64,000 bases of DNA from an uncultured Pseudomonadales bacterium (lineage in GTDB: Bacteria; Patescibacteriota; Microgenomatia; UBA1400; PJMF01). The translations under genes and the position numbers were made by a program. Shown here piece after piece: positions 1 through 10,061 of this stretch (the stretch's first letter is position 1; each line of letters starts with the position of its first letter). A model generated the notes under the pieces. That model saw nothing but the letters and a program-made list of their open reading frames with translations, made no database searches and was not told the origin of the DNA. Location: NCBI GenBank assembly GCA_964412775.1, contig CAYPPX010000001.1:141473-205472 (forward strand), read 5' to 3'.

Positions 1-125
1 AAACTAAACAAGCTAGCTGAATTTTACATAACTCAGTTCTAGCGACCTGAAGGAGATCAAGAATGAGATTGTGGAGTTGGGCGCTATCGCTAATATCCTT
101 GCTTAAGAGTAACTCACTCAAATTT
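1..125 (-). CDS. partial ORF running off the window start (unknown product)
   Basis: Reverse-strand reading frame stays open from about nt 125 to the window edge. No recognisable motif. Confidence 0.15.
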
Positions 126-331
126 CTACCTACTGAATTAGCATGTTGACCTTGAACAGCCAGCACACAAAACAAAGAGCCAGAAGGATGAGAAATCACT
201 TGAGCCCAACCATCCACTTGAGGCAGGCCGGTAATGGGTGTCAGCTGAAATTTTGACACATTTCCCATTATAACCACATTTTTTGAATATGTCTTGAGTA
301 TATTTTTCTATATAAAAATATATTAATTTTT

Positions 332-1384
332 TCACAGTTCACTAATATCCCAGTGAGGTTTGCGATCTAGTTTTTGAGGTTGAGTTTTTTGATTGATTAC
401 TTGATAGTAACCAGTCACACCAATCATCGCTCCATTATCACCACATAACCTTTTGGTATAGGGAGTTCTAAATTTAAGTTTAAATTCTTGAGCGACTTTT
501 CTCAGTTCAGCTTTAAGTTGCGTATTGGCAGCGACTCCACCACCCAGCCAAAGTTCTTTAACTTCTAGCTGAGCCAAAAGCTTCCGAAGTTTATAAGTAA
601 TGTGTCGAAAGACGCCGTATTGAAGTCCAGCACAAAAATTAATAATAGTTTGTTTATCTAGCTGATTGTTTTGGTCTAGTTTTTCGATCATTTTTCTGGA
701 ATGAGTTTTCATGCCAGAAAAACTCATGTTGAAATCATTACTAGTGGTCATTGGTAATGGGAAATCAAAGGCTTTTGGGTCGCCTTTTTTGGCAAATAGT
801 TCGACAGTTGGTCCGGCGGGGTAGCCAAGACCTAATATTCGACCGACTTTGTCTAAGCACTCACCAGCGGCGTCATCTAAAGTTGTACCAAGTTTTTTGT
901 ATTCACCAATCTTTTTAACTAGGACGAATTCAGTATGTCCACCAGAAACAACTACTGATAAAGCAGGCAACTGTGGTTGAATTGAAGAGAATGCTTTTTT
1001 AGTTGGTTTAGCTTGAGCCAGCACAGACAAAATATGGCCTTCAATATGGTTAACTGCTAAAACTGGTTTATGGTATTTTTTACCAAGTTCAATTACCTTT
1101 TCGATACCGATCTCCAAAGCTGGTGCTAAACCAGGACCTTGGGTAACAGCCAGGTAATCAATTTGTTCAATTTTAAGTTGAGCTTTTTTTAGCGCGGCTG
1201 TGATAGTTGGTTCAATATTTTCCTGATGAGCTTGTTTAGCTACTGTTGGAAAAACGCCACCATATTGTTGATGAAGATTAATTTGTGAGGCAACGACATT
1301 GCTCAAGATTTTTTGACCTTGGTTAACCGCCACAGAGGTCTCATCACAAGAAGTATCAATCGCTAAAATATAAGGATTTTTCAT
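332..1384 (-). CDS. tsaD: tRNA N6-adenosine threonylcarbamoyltransferase TsaD (Kae1/YgjD family)
   Basis: 350 aa. N-terminus is ILAIDTSCDETSVAV, HxEGH metal motif is NHIEGHILS, and the C-terminal GVxAN region is present. Its start overlaps the upstream gene stop (ATGA). Confidence 0.9.
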   Translation of the reverse strand: MKNPYILAIDTSCDETSVAVNQGQKILSNVVASQINLHQQYGGVFPTVAKQAHQENIEPTITAALKKAQLKIEQIDYLAVTQGPGLAPALEIGIEKVIELGKKYHKPVLAVNHIEGHILSVLAQAKPTKKAFSSIQPQLPALSVVVSGGHTEFVLVKKIGEYKKLGTTLDDAAGECLDKVGRILGLGYPAGPTVELFAKKGDPKAFDFPLPMTTSNDFNMSFSGMKTHSRKMIEKLDQNNQLDKQTIINFCAGLQYGVFRHITYKLRKLLAQLEVKELWLGGGVAANTQLKAELRKVAQEFKLKFRTPYTKRLCGDNGAMIGVTGYYQVINQKTQPQKLDRKPHWDISEL

Positions 1385-2454
1385 TGTTCTGACACCTTAA
1401 TTTCTCTAGCTGAAAGGTCGTCTTCAACTTCACTGATCGAGATCTCTAAATCAATCGGTAAATCTGTCGGCCAGTAGTCTTTGACTTGTTGCCACCACTC
1501 GATAATGACAATGTTGTTGGGTTGAACTAAATTTGGGACATTTAGTAATGACCAAGCTGCTTGGCTATCGATTTTCCAGACATCCAGGTGGTGAAGTATC
1601 CCGGTTATTTGGTGTCGGTCAAATTCGTACTGATTCATGTAGGTGTAGGTTGGAGAAGTAATGGGTTGGTTAATGTTCAAAAAATTAGCCACTCCCTGAG
1701 TAAAAATAGTTTTACCGGTGCCAAGTTTGCCATTTAAGCCGATCACTAGACCTTTTTCTTTGACTTGATTCCAGTTTTTGAGCATAAGCTTACCAGCTAA
1801 ACTTTTAGTTTCTTTTGTTGATTTAGTGAGAAAGTTTTTAGTTTTTTCAGTGGAGAGACTGCCCCTAACTTCCAATGGAGTAGAAAGTGTTGTATCAACC
1901 ACAATTGATGGTTCATTGGGAGGTAGTTTGCCAGCATCAATCACTAAGTCTAGGAGATTTTTTTGTTTGTCAGAAATATGGTCAAAAATATCTTGAATAG
2001 TGTAAGGTCGTTTTTTACCAGAAGCATTGGCCGAAGTTGCTGTGACTGGTTTATTAAATTTAGCCACTAAATCAGTGATTAACGGAAAATCAGGAATTCT
2101 AATGCCCAAAGTACCAAACTCTGATTCAACAAATGGGGCAACTTGGTTTTTACCTTGAGAAACAATCGTGTATGGTCCTGGTAAAAATTTTTGGTAAAAG
2201 TTTTTAGCCTGATCAGTTAGTTCAACATATTGTTCGGCCATCGCTTGGTTTTTGACAGCTACAGATAAAGGTTTGCCCTCTCGGCGAGTTTTGTATTTCA
2301 AGAGTTTCTCGACTGCTTGAGGGTTAGTAGCATCAACTCCAATGCCGTAAACAGTCTCAGTGGGATAAATCACTAAACCACCAGCCGCCAAAACTTGGCA
2401 GGCGGTAGCGACAACTTCTGAGTGGTTATTTGCAGTTAGTTTTAGTATTTGCAC
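1381..2454 (-). CDS. tsaC/tsaE: fusion of L-threonylcarbamoyladenylate synthase (TsaC/Sua5/YrdC domain) with the t6A ATPase TsaE (YjeE domain)
   Basis: N-terminal half carries YrdC motifs (YPTETVYGIG, KxR, SANxSG). After a Lys/Thr linker the C-terminal approx 130 aa carry the TsaE P-loop GLNGKLGTGKT and the conserved SPTYT...HxD block. Confidence 0.8.
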   Translation of the reverse strand: MQILKLTANNHSEVVATACQVLAAGGLVIYPTETVYGIGVDATNPQAVEKLLKYKTRREGKPLSVAVKNQAMAEQYVELTDQAKNFYQKFLPGPYTIVSQGKNQVAPFVESEFGTLGIRIPDFPLITDLVAKFNKPVTATSANASGKKRPYTIQDIFDHISDKQKNLLDLVIDAGKLPPNEPSIVVDTTLSTPLEVRGSLSTEKTKNFLTKSTKETKSLAGKLMLKNWNQVKEKGLVIGLNGKLGTGKTIFTQGVANFLNINQPITSPTYTYMNQYEFDRHQITGILHHLDVWKIDSQAAWSLLNVPNLVQPNNIVIIEWWQQVKDYWPTDLPIDLEISISEVEDDLSAREIKVSEQ

Positions 2455-2527
2455 CAGATCTGTATTTTACCAGGTTTGTGAAGTTTTTTGCTTCCTTTAG
2501 TTGCAATCTGCAGTATAATGCCACCAC

Positions 2528-2893
2528 ATGCCAATAAAGAGAAACATTAAAGTTTTTATTGACGATCAACTAACAGAAGAAGCAGATGATCAATTATCAG
2601 CTCAAGTTAGGTTTAATTTATACCAACGCCAACAACAAATTTCGGAAATTAGAGCTATTCTTCAAGATTTATCCCAAAAAGGTCAGTCAGAACAAACCGA
2701 GTGGTTGAGAGAAAACCAAGAGTTTGTCACAGAGTTGGCTGAGGATTTTATTGATGACTCGCTCTATCAACTAGATGGAATTAAATTGGATGGTAAAACC
2801 CTTCAGCTGTCAGTTGAAGTCATGACGCAGCTCAAGGAAACTTTGAACCTTTTCCAGACTATTGTTTATGGAGAGGACAATTTAGAAGCATAA
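2528..2893 (+). CDS. hypothetical acidic helical protein
   Basis: 121-aa ORF with no recognisable motif. The protein is Gln/Glu-rich. Confidence 0.4.
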   Translation: MPIKRNIKVFIDDQLTEEADDQLSAQVRFNLYQRQQQISEIRAILQDLSQKGQSEQTEWLRENQEFVTELAEDFIDDSLYQLDGIKLDGKTLQLSVEVMTQLKETLNLFQTIVYGEDNLEA

Positions 2894-3717: not shown

Positions 3718-4095
3718 ATGAAAAGTCTTTCTGTCGCTCAATTAAAACCGATGGCAGGTTATGTTTTAGTAGAACCAGCCAAGAGCGAGCAAAAAACCGT
3801 CTCTGGTATTATTTTGCCAGAAAATGATAGTGAAAAACCTCAATATGGTAAGGTTTTAGCTGTTGGTGAACCAGCTTGTGGTGACTGTTGTGATAGTTGT
3901 TGCGATGACCAAAGTGCTTGTTGTGGCAGTGGTTGCTGTGGTGAGGGTTGTTGTGATGACGACAAAAACTGTGAAGTTGAACTCAAAAAGGGTGACATGG
4001 TGGTTTATAAAAAATGGGGTGGTAATGAAGTAATGATTGATGACGTGGAGTATCAATTCTTAAAATTTGAAGACATTTTGGCAGTAGTGAAATAA
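3718..4095 (+). CDS. groES: co-chaperonin GroES with a cysteine-rich insertion
   Basis: Mobile-loop and core GroES signature (YVLVEP..KTVSGIILPE..GKVLAVG...GDMVVY..ILAV). A 13-Cys insert sits at nt 3877-3972. It lies directly upstream of groEL. Confidence 0.85.
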   Translation: MKSLSVAQLKPMAGYVLVEPAKSEQKTVSGIILPENDSEKPQYGKVLAVGEPACGDCCDSCCDDQSACCGSGCCGEGCCDDDKNCEVELKKGDMVVYKKWGGNEVMIDDVEYQFLKFEDILAVVK

Positions 4096-5803: not shown

Positions 5804-5810
5804 GTTAAGT

Positions 5811-5884
5811 ACCAGGGGTGAGAGTTGAACTCACGACCTTGGGTTTATGAATCCCATGCTCTAACCAACTGAGCTACCCTGGCG
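5811..5884 (-). tRNA. tRNA-Met (anticodon CAT), elongator-type
   Basis: Reverse complement reads GCCAGGGTAGCTCAGTTGGTTAGAGC...GGGATTCATAAACCC...GGTCGTGAGTTCAACTCTCACCCCTGGT. Canonical cloverleaf with a TPsiC loop. CCA is not encoded. Confidence 0.85.
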
Positions 5885-6001: not shown

Positions 6002-6070
6002 CGCGGGATAGTGTACGGTGCACGTGAGGCTCATAATCTCACAGGCTGGGTTCGACTCCCCGTCCCGCAA
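6002..6070 (+). tRNA. tRNA-Met (anticodon CAT), probably the initiator tRNA-fMet (C1xA72 mismatch)
   Basis: CGCGGGA...GAGGCTCATAATCTC...TTCGACT...TCCCGCAA. The first base C is unpaired against A72, as in bacterial initiators. The D-arm is unusually short. A divergent promoter lies between the two tRNAs. Confidence 0.6.
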
Positions 6071-6082
6071 CATTACAAAAAT

Positions 6083-8946: not shown

Positions 8947-9480
8947 GTGAAACTTATTTCAGGTAATATTTCCTATTTACCACAATATACTGATCTTCTC
9001 CAAAAAACATACGAGTCAGCTTATGTTGATGACTCTCTTGGCTTGACTAAAGATTGTTTTTCTAGAGAAATTTTTTACAACCAAGCTACCCAAAGTTACC
9101 TCAGATCTAGGTTAGAACTCACTGATCATCTCCAAACTTGGTTGGCTTTTGACCAAGATAAATTAATTGGTTCAATTACCGTGATTTTACTTTCTGACAC
9201 TGAAGCAGAACTGACTGGTTTTTATGTTGATCCAGCTTTTCAAGGCCAAGGTATTGGTAAAAAACTTTACCAGTTAGCTTTAGGGTTTGCTGGTAAGAGA
9301 GCTTTAGTTTTAGATATCTATTTGCATAACCAAAAAACCATTGAACTTTATAAAAAATGGGGTTGGCAATTAGATACAAGTCGAGGGGATAACGGTTATT
9401 TTTATAGGCATTGGCCAGAGTGGCCAGCTGGTTTGCAGGCTAAAGCGATGTATATGAGACTAGTGAAAAAAACTAGGTAA
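8947..9480 (+). CDS. GNAT-family N-acetyltransferase
   Basis: Acetyl-CoA motif A FQGQGIGKKLYQ. GTG start. Confidence 0.75.
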   Translation: MKLISGNISYLPQYTDLLQKTYESAYVDDSLGLTKDCFSREIFYNQATQSYLRSRLELTDHLQTWLAFDQDKLIGSITVILLSDTEAELTGFYVDPAFQGQGIGKKLYQLALGFAGKRALVLDIYLHNQKTIELYKKWGWQLDTSRGDNGYFYRHWPEWPAGLQAKAMYMRLVKKTR

Positions 9481-9527
9481 TTTGTTTAGTTTAGCTAATA
9501 TTTATTATTTAGCTTTATAATTTAATT

Positions 9528-10061
9528 ATGAAAGAAACCGAACGAGTAAAAAATACTGAATCCAAGACTTTCCAGAAAATGCCTGAATTTATTAAAAAAG
9601 GGATTCAGGAATTGGCAGGTCACTTTGGGGAAATTTTTCAGTCAAATCAAGAAAGTAACTTTTTACTTGGTAAGATGCTACAAGATGAAAAAGTTAGAGT
9701 TGCTTTGTTGGCCGTAACGAGAACAGTGCTTAATATTGGTATTTCGGTAGTTGATGTTTTTCCTGGTATTGGTGAAGTAGTTTCATTGGGTGCTGATTTG
9801 GCTAAACTAACAAAGTTTGATTTAACTCCAGATGTAAACAAGGGTTGGGCCTGGGGGACTGAGATTATTGAGTTATTTACTGGTGGGGTTTTTCCTAGTC
9901 ATGCAATTGAAACCACGATGCAGTTTATTAAAGATTTCCCTAGAATAAAAGAGGGTGCAAAGCGAGCTAAAAAAATTTGGGAAGCTCACCAAGCAGTCAT
10001 TAAAACCAAAAAAGTCCAAGATGCTGCCTCAGTTTTTGCTCCAGCCCCTATGGCTGTTTAA
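9528..10061 (+). CDS. hypothetical protein
   Basis: 177-aa ORF. No motif recognised. Confidence 0.4.
   Translation: MKETERVKNTESKTFQKMPEFIKKGIQELAGHFGEIFQSNQESNFLLGKMLQDEKVRVALLAVTRTVLNIGISVVDVFPGIGEVVSLGADLAKLTKFDLTPDVNKGWAWGTEIIELFTGGVFPSHAIETTMQFIKDFPRIKEGAKRAKKIWEAHQAVIKTKKVQDAASVFAPAPMAV

Follow-up and report, generated by a model that had tools for sequence, protein, structure and literature searches.

A TsaC-TsaE fusion protein, encoded next to tsaD in a Pacebacteria-type genome and present in hundreds of related bacteria

The 64-kb window, i.e., the whole stretch of DNA that was analyzed, comes from an uncultured bacterium of the candidate phyla radiation, a member of the Patescibacteria of the Pacebacteria/Microgenomates type, and carries a bicistronic unit whose first gene encodes a fusion of TsaC and TsaE, for which the name TsaCE was coined here, and whose second gene is tsaD. 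The features of the locus are listed with the source of each assignment in parentheses.

332..1384, minus strand: tsaD, 350 aa, catalytic subunit of the tRNA A37 threonylcarbamoyltransferase, encoded second in the bicistronic unit (Pfam, TIGR03723)
1381..1384, minus strand: ATGA, tsaD start over tsaCE stop, a junction of the translational-coupling type (sequence)
1381..2454, minus strand: tsaCE, single 357-aa ORF, GTG start, TGA stop (ORF list, sequence, PF01300 and PF02367, TIGR00057 and TIGR00150)
1384..1842, minus strand: TsaE P-loop ATPase domain, aa 205-357 (Pfam, TIGR00150, alignment to T. maritima and B. subtilis TsaE, Foldseek)
1495..1500, minus strand: E319-W320, the TsaE "EW" motif (translation)
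1576..1590, minus strand: H289-LDVW-K294, Walker B/Switch II region, HxDx[WY][RK] (translation)
1642..1656, minus strand: S267-PTYT, Switch I SPT(F/Y)T loop (translation)
1708..1731, minus strand: G242-KLGTGK-T249, Walker A/P-loop (translation)
1843..1863, minus strand: interdomain connector GSLSTEK, aa 198-204, approximately 7 residues (AF2 model, alignments)
1864..2454, minus strand: TsaC (YrdC-type) threonylcarbamoyl-AMP synthase domain, aa 1-197 (Pfam, TIGR00057, PDB sequence matches, Foldseek)
2026..2034, minus strand: S141-A-N143, "SxN" half of the TsaC catalytic tetrad (translation)
2284..2292, minus strand: K55-T-R57, "KxR" half of the TsaC catalytic tetrad (translation)
2455..2527, no strand assigned: upstream intergenic region of tsaCE, 73 nt, divergent (sequence)

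The first-pass annotation had described the 357-aa ORF at 1381-2454 without giving its strand. In the ORF list and in the sequence, this ORF lies intact on the minus strand, with neither a frameshift splitting it nor an internal stop. The claimed ATGA overlap with tsaD was found as well, bases 1381-1384 reading ATGA on the minus strand. The product of the downstream gene was recognized as TsaD by Pfam (2.8e-78) and TIGR03723 (345.6 bits, cut-off 296.1), and its translation contains the metal-binding motif H113-IEG-H117. The intergenic region at 2455..2527 presumably holds the tsaCE promoter. A consensus scan of its minus strand gave no convincing sigma-70 site; by eye, an extended -10-like element, TGgTAAAAT, lies approximately 9 nt upstream of the tsaCE GTG, and no Shine-Dalgarno motif was seen before this start codon.

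The N-terminal YrdC-type domain was matched by PF01300 (Sua5_yciO_yrdC) at aa 21-193 with an E value of 4.8e-47 and 160.2 bits against a cut-off of 25.1, and by the NCBIfam equivalog TIGR00057 (L-threonylcarbamoyladenylate synthase) at aa 8-209 with 170.3 against a cut-off of 123.2. The best PDB sequence matches of the domain were the archaeal MTH1692 (1.4e-31) and T. maritima TsaC2 (2.1e-29), and Foldseek superposed it on E. coli YrdC (1hru; TM 0.82, rmsd 2.7) and on YciO (1k7j; TM 0.84). The score for the proteobacterial "type 1 TsaC" subfamily NF007919 stayed at 96.1 bits versus a cut-off of 175, and Pfam gave no match to the C-terminal SUA5 domain PF03481 in TsaCE, the C-terminal half being TsaE. 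By these sequence matches, the domain is to be classed as a short, SUA5-less TsaC outside the enterobacterial subfamily. The KxR...SxN catalytic tetrad of TsaC, as defined in PMC9654439, is represented by K55-T-R57 and S141-A-N143. In an alignment of 121 homologues, K55, R58, S141, and N143 were invariant and R57 was at least 90% conserved; in a set of 229 homologues, KxR was kept in 217 and [ST]SAN in 224. The Asn of SxN was lost in a minority of divergent fused homologues (L009, P0341, P0380, and P0388/389), so that the fusion can persist with a possibly inactive TsaC domain. The TsaC domain of TsaCE itself probably makes TC-AMP from threonine, bicarbonate, and ATP.

The C-terminal domain was assigned to TsaE by PF02367 at aa 211-344 (E 1.6e-24; 86.7 bits, cut-off 26.6) and by the NCBIfam equivalog TIGR00150 (74.7, cut-off 60.1). 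The TsaE fold was recovered by Pfam, by TIGR00150, and by AlphaFold with Foldseek, and both motifs quoted in the first-pass annotation, GLNGKLGTGKT and SPTYT, are present in the translation. The closest structures were HI0065 TsaE (1htw; TM 0.80, rmsd 2.1), 5np9 (TM 0.73), and the T. maritima TsaE chains in 6s84 and 6n9a (TM 0.70-0.73), and the domain aligns residue by residue with T. maritima and B. subtilis TsaE, the N-terminal helix included. Residues G242, L244, G245, K248, and T249 of the P-loop and the E319-W320 pair were invariant in the 121-homologue alignment; among the 229 homologues, EW was found in 226, SPT[FY] in 228, and HxDx[WY][RK] in all. In T. maritima TsaBDE, the SPT(F/Y)T loop touches the ATP gamma-phosphate and adjoins TC-AMP in TsaD, and the Glu of EW is the Mg-coordinating Glu108 of TsaE (PMC6009658), while HxDx[WY][RK] matches TsaE Tyr82/Arg83, which are required for the reset step (PMC6614819). 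The conservation of Walker A, SPT(F/Y)T, HxDx[WY][RK], and EW, present in 226-229 of the 229 homologues, indicates that the domain has retained the canonical role of TsaE. The identities of both domains are well supported.

A Lys/Thr-rich linker had been proposed to join the two domains. Residues 198-222 are indeed rich in these amino acids (6 Lys and 5 Thr among the 25 residues), but aa 205-226 form part of the TsaE fold, which starts with strand 205-210 followed by a conserved N-terminal helix with E215, T216, and A220, and the K/T richness is not kept in homologues. The connector GSLSTEK is the sole coil between strands 194-197 and 205-210 of the AF2 model (mean pLDDT of 86 over aa 191-200 and of 92 over aa 201-210) and an indel hot spot in the homologue alignments. 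The spacing from PSxVVD to Walker A was 53-63 residues in 227 of the 229 homologues; long junction insertions were seen in P0239, whose TsaE domain begins approximately 100 residues past the TsaC end, and in P0180, with a spacing of 81. AF2 models of two members that are 40% identical each formed one compact body (pLDDT 95.1 and pTM 0.89; pLDDT 94.0 and pTM 0.87). As modeled, the junction is structurally constrained, not floppy, and the linker is far shorter than first thought.

The survey of related genomes that the first-pass annotation had suggested found the fused architecture to be common to hundreds of related bacteria. In three homologue searches, all of the 360 matches listed, approximately 350 distinct clusters, combined PF01300 with PF02367, at identities reaching down to about 37%, and in the alignments the homologues were colinear with TsaCE across 100% of its length. 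A search with the TsaE domain at 50% clustering returned approximately 22 full-length fused clusters among the best 150 representatives, and ten odd-length matches were each TsaC plus TsaE. The fusion was carried by 62 retrieved loci, and its named sources were all Patescibacteria, namely, Pacebacteria, Woese-, Roizman-, Collier-, and Dojkabacteria. Far from being peculiar to one genome, the fused form is the rule in a large clade of Patescibacteria. No paper describing a TsaC-TsaE fusion was found in the literature; some annotation pipelines already label it as such.

A frameshift, assembly error, or misjoin merging two genes can be dismissed with near certainty. Split or broken versions do occur on short, low-coverage contigs: in L162, TsaC and TsaE are encoded by two separate ORFs that overlap, and L163 has a TsaC fragment with X residues. 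Against such an artefact, the identical TsaCE protein was assembled independently in the public run SRR5011273, the same colinear fusion recurs in the 360 of 360 listed matches drawn from NCBI, JGI, ENA, and Logan and in the 62 loci, and the junction is conserved in sequence and length.

The linkage to tsaD is conserved, too. Among 55 related loci, tsaD lies downstream of the fusion in 46, and 33 of the tsaCE-tsaD junctions are tight, 23 with overlapping genes and 10 with a gap of at most 40 nt; tight junctions come in several types, of which the exact ATGA overlap is only one. In the Dojkabacteria locus L166 and some other loci, tsaD is not adjacent to the fusion.

The first-pass annotation held that tsaC and tsaE are separate genes in most bacteria, in line with published surveys (PMC4615747, PMC3571937), which report no physical or genetic TsaC-TsaE link and only rare four-gene clusters (PMC3571937). 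The stand-alone TsaC (YrdC) and TsaE (YjeE) that work with TsaB-TsaD in E. coli, B. subtilis, T. maritima, and A. aeolicus share families, motifs, folds, and the partner tsaD with TsaCE, and presumably its chemistry of TC-AMP synthesis and ATP-driven transferase reset. They are two proteins, whereas TsaCE is one polypeptide with a connector of approximately 7 residues. Sua5/TsaC2, the best full-length Foldseek matches of TsaCE, likewise have an N-terminal YrdC-type synthase followed directly by a second alpha/beta domain, which is SUA5 in these proteins and a TsaE P-loop ATPase in TsaCE.

Other fusions resemble TsaCE in part. TobZ and HypF combine YrdC-like and Kae1/TsaD-like domains with an internal tunnel for the carbamoyl-adenylate and share the logic of fusing the maker of a labile acyl-adenylate to the consuming machinery. 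In these proteins, the synthase is fused to the transferase; TsaCE instead joins it to the ATPase that regulates the transferase, with tsaD as a separate, coupled gene. TsaCE does not belong to this type, having no Kae1/TsaD domain and only 28 bits for TIGR00143 (hypF) versus a cut-off of 466. Pandoravirus TsaN (TsaD-TsaC-SUA5-TcdA; PDB 8ide) is also a multidomain t6A-module fusion with a TsaC domain but, unlike TsaCE, has no TsaE domain and neither TsaB nor TsaE as a partner; its action is at the nucleotide level, and a channel was not seen (PMC10484737). The archaeal Kae1-Bud32 fusion (e.g., MJ1130 and HVO_1895) is similarly widespread in its lineage (25 of 53 archaea) and involves an ATPase/kinase-type regulatory subunit of the t6A transferase complex. 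There, the regulator is fused to the transferase Kae1 and not, as in TsaCE, to the TC-AMP synthase, and Bud32, which has no relationship to TsaE, binds Kae1 on another face. The lineage-specific gene fusions yeaZ::rimI::ygjD (Coriobacterium) and yjeE-alr (Clavibacter) also involve the TsaB/D/E complex and were used as Rosetta-stone interaction evidence (PMC3571937); neither joins TsaC to a TsaBDE member, as TsaCE does.

TsaCE is best explained, with a probability of roughly 55%, as a bifunctional enzyme in which TC-AMP synthesis is tethered to TsaB-TsaD in its TsaE-bound, tRNA-free state. The gene would be cotranscribed with tsaD and translationally coupled to it, the fusion fixing TsaC:TsaE at 1:1 and the overlap coupling production to that of TsaD. 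The TsaE domain in its ATP form would dock at the TsaD active-site entrance on the TsaB-TsaD heterodimer, and its ATP hydrolysis would reset the transferase between turnovers. TsaE and tRNA would compete for one site on TsaB-TsaD, so TsaE would be in place precisely while the TsaD pocket lacks tRNA and can hold a TC-AMP-like ligand. With docking through the TsaE domain, the short, length-constrained junction would bring the TC-AMP source to tRNA-free TsaD. Labile TC-AMP would be loaded locally, by proximity or through a transient channel, the whole TsaCE would then be ejected by ATP hydrolysis, and tRNA would bind and be modified. The connection that the first-pass annotation drew between the first step and the ATPase cycle is plausible and agrees with published hypotheses. 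TsaE was placed at the TsaD pocket entrance, excluding tRNA, in the study in which an N-terminally His-tagged TsaE construct, with a TEV site for tag removal if necessary, was prepared for crystallization and which proposed that TsaE "prepares" TsaD for TC-AMP from TsaC via a transient quaternary complex (PMC6009658). TsaD holds a TC-AMP mimic while TsaE-ATP is bound, and the role of TsaC in the reset step was called an open question (PMC6614819). Missoury et al. pointed out that TobZ, taken as an analogue, would put TsaC on the TsaD side opposite TsaE, a position that would speak against a simple, direct channel if TsaC is rigidly attached.

Possibly, though with less in its favor than this tethering, the fusion is a streamlining and coexpression device only, giving 1:1 TsaC:TsaE with less regulatory sequence, independent domains, TC-AMP delivery by diffusion, and no kinetic gain. 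The organisms have small genomes with tightly packed, overlapping genes, yjeE-alr and yeaZ-rimI-ygjD are t6A fusions without obvious channelling logic (PMC3571937), and separate TsaC and TsaE suffice in the E. coli, B. subtilis, T. maritima, and A. aeolicus reconstitutions. The few homologues that tolerate long junction insertions (P0239 and P0180) and the existence of split or adjacent versions such as L162 also fit it. However, the junction is held at 53-63 residues in all but two of the 229 members, the compact body predicted in two 40%-identical clades is unexpected for independent beads on a string, lineages as distant as Woese-, Collier-, Roizman-, Pace-, and Dojkabacteria have kept the fusion, and proximity has an obvious benefit for TC-AMP, described as very unstable. 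An unlikely variant, compatible with tethering and not exclusive of it, is that the TsaC domain is the main target of the TsaE domain, which would replace SUA5 and gate or allosterically switch TC-AMP synthesis, so that TC-AMP, costly and labile, would form only while TsaE engages ATP or TsaB-TsaD. The TsaE domain does occupy the SUA5 position, right after the "...PSxVVD...P..VR.G" end of the YrdC domain, and the constrained junction length and the confident interdomain packing of the two AF2 models, with no disordered linker, are consistent with such a switch. Full-length Foldseek superposition on Sua5/TsaC2 nevertheless covers one domain only (TM ~0.5, rmsd 13-14 Å), indicating that the TsaCE arrangement is not Sua5-like, and all TsaE motifs for ATPase activity and for communication with TsaD are conserved.

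The absence of tsaB from the window, claimed in the first-pass annotation, was borne out by every search. Nothing was obtained within the 64 kb by phmmer with an E. coli YeaZ sequence and the window TsaD as queries, a Pfam scan of 20 mid-sized window ORFs gave no TsaB, the three window ORFs without a family bore no resemblance to TsaB when read by eye, and a lineage-specific TsaD N-terminal profile detected no paralogue in the window. Within ±10 kb of the fusion, tsaB was likewise not found in approximately 64 related loci (12 genome, 50 metagenome, and 2 further loci); its presence elsewhere in these genomes is therefore assumed. These results, and the clustering of tsaB with tsaE and tsaD in many other bacteria, would suit a two-gene t6A system that has lost tsaB, with TsaCE acting on a TsaD homodimer like mitochondrial Qri7 plus an ATPase, which we nevertheless regard as quite improbable. 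The searches reached only a small part of each genome, Thiaville et al. report TsaE loss with TsaB kept and not the reverse case in their survey, TsaE contacts TsaB and TsaD fully asymmetrically and binds neither homodimer (PMC6009658), and the TsaE domain of TsaCE is under strong constraint.

The t6A modification at tRNA position 37 occurs universally and is essential in almost all cases; among the proteins discussed as targets for antibacterials are TsaE, TsaB, and TsaD. The primary literature still asks how the very unstable TC-AMP travels from TsaC to TsaD and what the ATPase TsaE is really for. A clade-wide TsaC-TsaE fusion with a constrained junction provides Rosetta-stone evidence that the two act jointly in space and time, and a clue to the TsaC-to-TsaD hand-off that structural papers have proposed and never demonstrated. 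A complex of TsaCE with TsaB-TsaD is expected to show much greater stability than the transient four-protein complex, which has been seen in gel shifts only, and may suit cryo-EM. Most pipelines label the fused proteins "L-threonylcarbamoyladenylate synthase" only, so genome surveys would wrongly score tsaE as absent in Patescibacteria with the fusion. More tentatively, TC-AMP synthesis may be built into the TsaE cycle across much of the Patescibacteria (Microgenomates-type and Dojkabacteria), with docking, loading, and expulsion by hydrolysis and, in an extreme form, without TsaB. If so, the transient TsaC-TsaBDE complex so far only postulated from structures would have a natural, stable counterpart in TsaCE, which would tell when TsaC acts relative to the reset step.

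The fused TsaC-TsaE protein (TsaCE) and the tsaD gene are encoded on the reverse strand of the window as follows.

1381..2454 (-), tsaCE, 357 aa, GTG start and TGA stop
1864-2454 (-), TsaC half, aa 1-197, with the KxR and SxN halves of the catalytic tetrad as K55-T-R57 and S141-A-N143
aa 198-204 (-), inter-domain connector GSLSTEK, about 7 residues
1384-1842 (-), TsaE half, aa 205-357, with Walker A GKLGTGKT, Switch I loop SPTYT, Walker B/Switch II HLDVWK and an EW motif
332..1384 (-), tsaD, directly downstream of tsaCE, TIGR03723 345.6 bits against a cut-off of 296.1

The sequence and the ORF list gave a single frame throughout tsaCE, with no internal stop or frameshift. Both domains were recognized by Pfam well over the gathering scores, Sua5_yciO_yrdC at aa 21-193 (E 4.8e-47) and TsaE at aa 211-344 (E 1.6e-24), and by the NCBIfam equivalogs TIGR00057 for L-threonylcarbamoyladenylate synthase (170.3 bits, cut-off 123.2) and TIGR00150 for TsaE (74.7 bits, cut-off 60.1). 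The KxR...SxN tetrad is defined in PMC9654439, and PMC6009658 and PMC6614819 explain what the TsaE loops do. TsaCE agrees with membership of both families in every feature testable from the sequence and the model, and it most probably is a bifunctional TsaC and TsaE protein (probability about 0.95).

The first-pass annotation had described one ORF carrying both domains and an ATGA overlap with tsaD. The intact ORF and the Pfam and equivalog matches bear out the former, and the tsaD ATG does overlap the fusion TGA at 1381-1384; the strand of the fusion was the sole item missing from that description. The Lys/Thr-rich linker proposed between the domains held only in part. The segment itself is rich in Lys and Thr, but most of it belongs to TsaE, because '...KETKSLAGKL...' aligns, residue by residue, with the ordinary N-terminal helix of TsaE from T. 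maritima and B. subtilis, which leaves the short connector as the true junction. Its Lys/Thr richness is not conserved in homologues and is a feature of the 37% G+C genome of the window. Separate translation of TsaE from an internal start at M224 was rejected, as this residue is unconserved in the alignment.

Among 229 homologues, the TsaC motifs KxR and SAN were kept in 217 and 224, respectively, and the TsaE motifs SPT[FY], HxDx[WY][RK] and EW in 228, 229 and 226. These counts point to purifying selection on both halves as working enzymes. In some divergent fused members, including locus L009 (9995-11071) and the proteins P0341, P0380, P0388 and P0389, the Asn of SxN, or Ser and Asn both, were replaced (e.g., 'TTAAPAS', 'TSAL' and 'TSAV') with all TsaE motifs kept. 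By a crude regular-expression count, such members made up about 12 of the 114 in the most divergent set, and their TsaC domain may be inactive. Two short metagenomic contigs first picked as stand-alone TsaE relatives proved to be broken fusions: in L162 (1-1274) the TsaC ORF ends just past the YrdC domain and overlaps a separate TsaE ORF, and L163 (31-1036) holds a TsaC fragment with X residues. These split forms could be sequencing frameshifts or true gene fissions. A real stand-alone TsaE was present on the short contig L164, where it adjoins a HIT gene, with no TsaB.

The AlphaFold2 model of TsaCE, built with 121 homologues, had a mean pLDDT of 95.1 and a pTM of 0.89 without low-confidence segments. 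In the Foldseek comparison with the PDB, the TsaC half matched E. coli YrdC (1hru, TM 0.82) and the TsaE half matched H. influenzae TsaE (1htw, TM 0.80) and T. maritima TsaE in 6s84 and 6n9a (TM about 0.7); no solved structure with both folds was found, and in full-length alignments with Sua5/TsaC2 one domain only superposed (rmsd 13-14 A). The second AlphaFold2 model, for which a clade-C protein of 40% identity was given an alignment of its own, likewise formed one confident body (pLDDT 94.0, pTM 0.87). The spacing from PSxVVD at the TsaC end to the Walker A glycine was 53-63 residues in 227 of the 229 homologues (median 55; 54 in the window protein). Since the spacing is narrow and the models compact, the manner of joining TsaC to TsaE is also constrained.

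The identical protein was also present in an independent public assembly. A 5.8-billion-protein collection was searched with the window protein, its 40%-identical relative from L012 and the more divergent fused P0380, and all 360 matches listed (120 per search) carried both PF01300 and PF02367. The matches listed represent about 350 distinct 90% clusters of 311-394 aa with identity down to 36-37%, and their named sources are Patescibacteria only (Pacebacteria/Paceibacterota, Microgenomates, Roizmanbacteria, Woesebacteria, Collierbacteria, Dojkabacteria and 'Patescibacteria group'). Most are labeled 'L-threonylcarbamoyladenylate synthase' alone, and a few JGI entries bear a double Sua5/TsaE name. 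With the TsaE domain as the only query, an exhaustive HMMER search of 1.84 billion 50%-identity representatives gave about 22 full-length fused clusters within the best 150, and all 10 odd-length matches checked were TsaC plus TsaE, some truncated or with insertions. The fusion was found in 62 fetched loci, 12 of them from GTDB species genomes and 50 from metagenomes, the 12 genome loci spanning at least three clades at 37-47% identity to one another. An assembly artefact is excluded by the identical independent assembly together with the same fusion in all listed matches, and a one-off event by the number of distinct clusters that share it.

In 55 complete fused genes with downstream sequence, tsaD followed the fusion in 46, with its start overlapping the fusion stop (ATGA or a longer overlap) in 23, after a gap of at most 40 nt in 10 and of 41-200 nt in one, and with one gene inserted in 12. 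The 12 GTDB loci taken alone gave the same picture, and some fused loci were without adjacent tsaD. Operon coupling of tsaCE and tsaD is very probable. In the window the unit is bicistronic, because the gene after tsaD is read in a different frame, from a promoter-like site separate from that of the unit. This gene (~1..268 (-)) starts near 259 or 268 and continues beyond the left edge of the window, is conserved in the related locus L001 as '(M/V)SKFQLTPITGLPQ...GSLFCVLAV.GQ.ANSVG...' and is preceded by the promoter-like AAGACA-17-TATAAT at 295-267. The 65-aa ORF at 138..335 (-), overlapping the tsaD stop, was rejected as spurious, since the conserved gene uses another frame.

Other features of the neighborhood are the following.

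2528..2893 (+), 121-aa ORF without a Pfam family, divergent from tsaCE, with the recurring pattern '...F.LY...R...W..E...FV..L...F.DD....LDG..LD...'
3718..4095 (+), GroES, 125 aa, with a mid-protein Cys/Asp-rich insertion of about 30 residues, ACGDCCDSCCDDQSACCGSGCCGEGCCDDDKNCE
5809..5883 (-) and 6002..6071 (+), two tRNA-Met (CAT) genes, back to back and divergent, just downstream of groEL
8947..9480 (+), GNAT acetyltransferase, 177 aa, RimI-like size
9528..10061 (+), 177-aa ORF, no family

The 121-aa ORF kept its position in 13 of the 62 fused loci, all of the window's own clade (e.g., L001 9543-9917 and L006 9534-9881), and was rejected as a general fusion partner. The GroES insertion, which may be a metal-binding loop, occurred in a shorter form only in the closest relative, L001, and was absent from 16 other GroES proteins of the fetched loci. 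The tRNA pair could be initiator and elongator, or include a tRNA-Ile2 precursor. A HIT-family gene (histidine triad, CxxC...HxHxH; nucleotide hydrolase) recurred beside tsaCE, tsaD or stand-alone tsaE in several Patescibacteria lineages: on the opposite strand between tsaCE and tsaD in L088, L090, L092, L095 and L120, beside stand-alone tsaE in L164 (1102-1500), and on the same strand directly upstream in L165 of Collierbacteria (9458-9901). None is present in the window. Acyl-adenylates are among the compounds that HIT enzymes hydrolyse, and a connection with the labile t6A intermediate threonylcarbamoyl-AMP (TC-AMP) is therefore conceivable. Several GTDB representatives among the loci (L002, L004, L005, L006, L008 and L009) are titled 'uncultured Pseudomonadales', 'Vitreimonas sp.' or 'uncultured Gammaproteobacteria'; these names look unreliable, as gene content and synteny match Patescibacteria loci.

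The absence of tsaB from the window, stated in the first-pass annotation, was confirmed. Only TsaD/Kae1 was matched by phmmer with an approximate E. coli YeaZ sequence and the window TsaD against all window ORFs, 80 genome loci and 80 metagenome loci, or by a lineage-specific TsaD N-terminal HMM in the window and loci, and a Pfam scan of 20 mid-sized window ORFs found no TsaB. No tsaB lay within 10 kb on either side of the fusion at any related locus. The intervening or neighboring ORFs in L003 (164 aa), L006 (301 aa), L009 (302 aa) and L165 (163 aa) were unlike TsaB, and several intervening genes elsewhere encode HIT-family proteins. As rimI lies between tsaB and tsaD in many bacteria, the ORF at 9528..10061 (+) was examined and showed no resemblance to TsaB. 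In the survey of Thiaville et al., loss of TsaE with TsaB kept occurs, both are absent in just two mycoplasmas, and TsaE without TsaB is unreported; the contacts of TsaE with TsaB and with TsaD are asymmetric, and it does not bind a homodimer of either (PMC6009658). For these reasons tsaB is likely to lie elsewhere in the genome, and a t6A system without TsaB, the one argument for which is that tsaB was not found in small genome samples, is most improbable.

TsaCE differs from Sua5/TsaC2 in having no SUA5 domain and from the YrdC-Kae1 proteins TobZ and HypF in having no Kae1 domain. TsaC is not joined to TsaE in archaeal Kae1-Bud32, pandoravirus TsaD-TsaC-SUA5-TcdA, Mycoplasma genitalium TsaC-HemK, yeaZ-rimI-ygjD or yjeE-alr. 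A full-text search of open-access papers and bioRxiv, along with the principal reviews and structural studies on t6A, gave no account of TsaC fused to TsaE or of t6A genes in the candidate phyla radiation; the architecture is visible in public annotation as Pfam domain strings and some JGI product names. The fusion is mechanistically suggestive and unreported in the searchable literature. It is built from textbook TsaC and TsaE and does not represent a system of a new type.

The very unstable TC-AMP is the product of TsaC, and from it TsaD in the TsaB-TsaD heterodimer transfers threonylcarbamoyl to A37. ATP-bound TsaE binds where the TsaD pocket opens, competing with tRNA, and its ATP hydrolysis is needed for multiple turnovers (PMC6009658, PMC6614819). 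A TC-AMP mimic occupies TsaD while TsaE-ATP is bound, and Luthra et al. listed as unknown when TsaC acts in the reset step and what it does there (PMC6614819). Missoury et al. proposed that TsaE opens TsaBD to take TC-AMP from TsaC via a short-lived quaternary complex, which was seen in gel shifts only; they also noted that a TobZ-like placement would put TsaC and TsaE on opposite sides of TsaD (PMC6009658). The crystallisation construct of TsaE carried an N-terminal His-tag, TEV-removable if necessary (PMC6009658), so the complex may also tolerate TsaE that is extended at its N terminus.

Hand-off of TC-AMP from TsaC to TsaE-bound TsaD is a tentative reading of the fusion. Streamlining and stoichiometry only would be a somewhat less likely reason for it, against which stand the constraint on the junction and the compact body modeled in each of two distant clades. 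That the TsaE domain substitutes for a SUA5 domain in gating TsaC is unlikely; such regulation is compatible with the data and need not replace the other readings. Under the hand-off, TsaCE would bring the source of TC-AMP to TsaD in its tRNA-free, TsaE-bound state, and this source would then be removed along with TsaE upon ATP hydrolysis. A conserved covalent link between TsaC and TsaE is what the quaternary-complex model predicts evolution could exploit.
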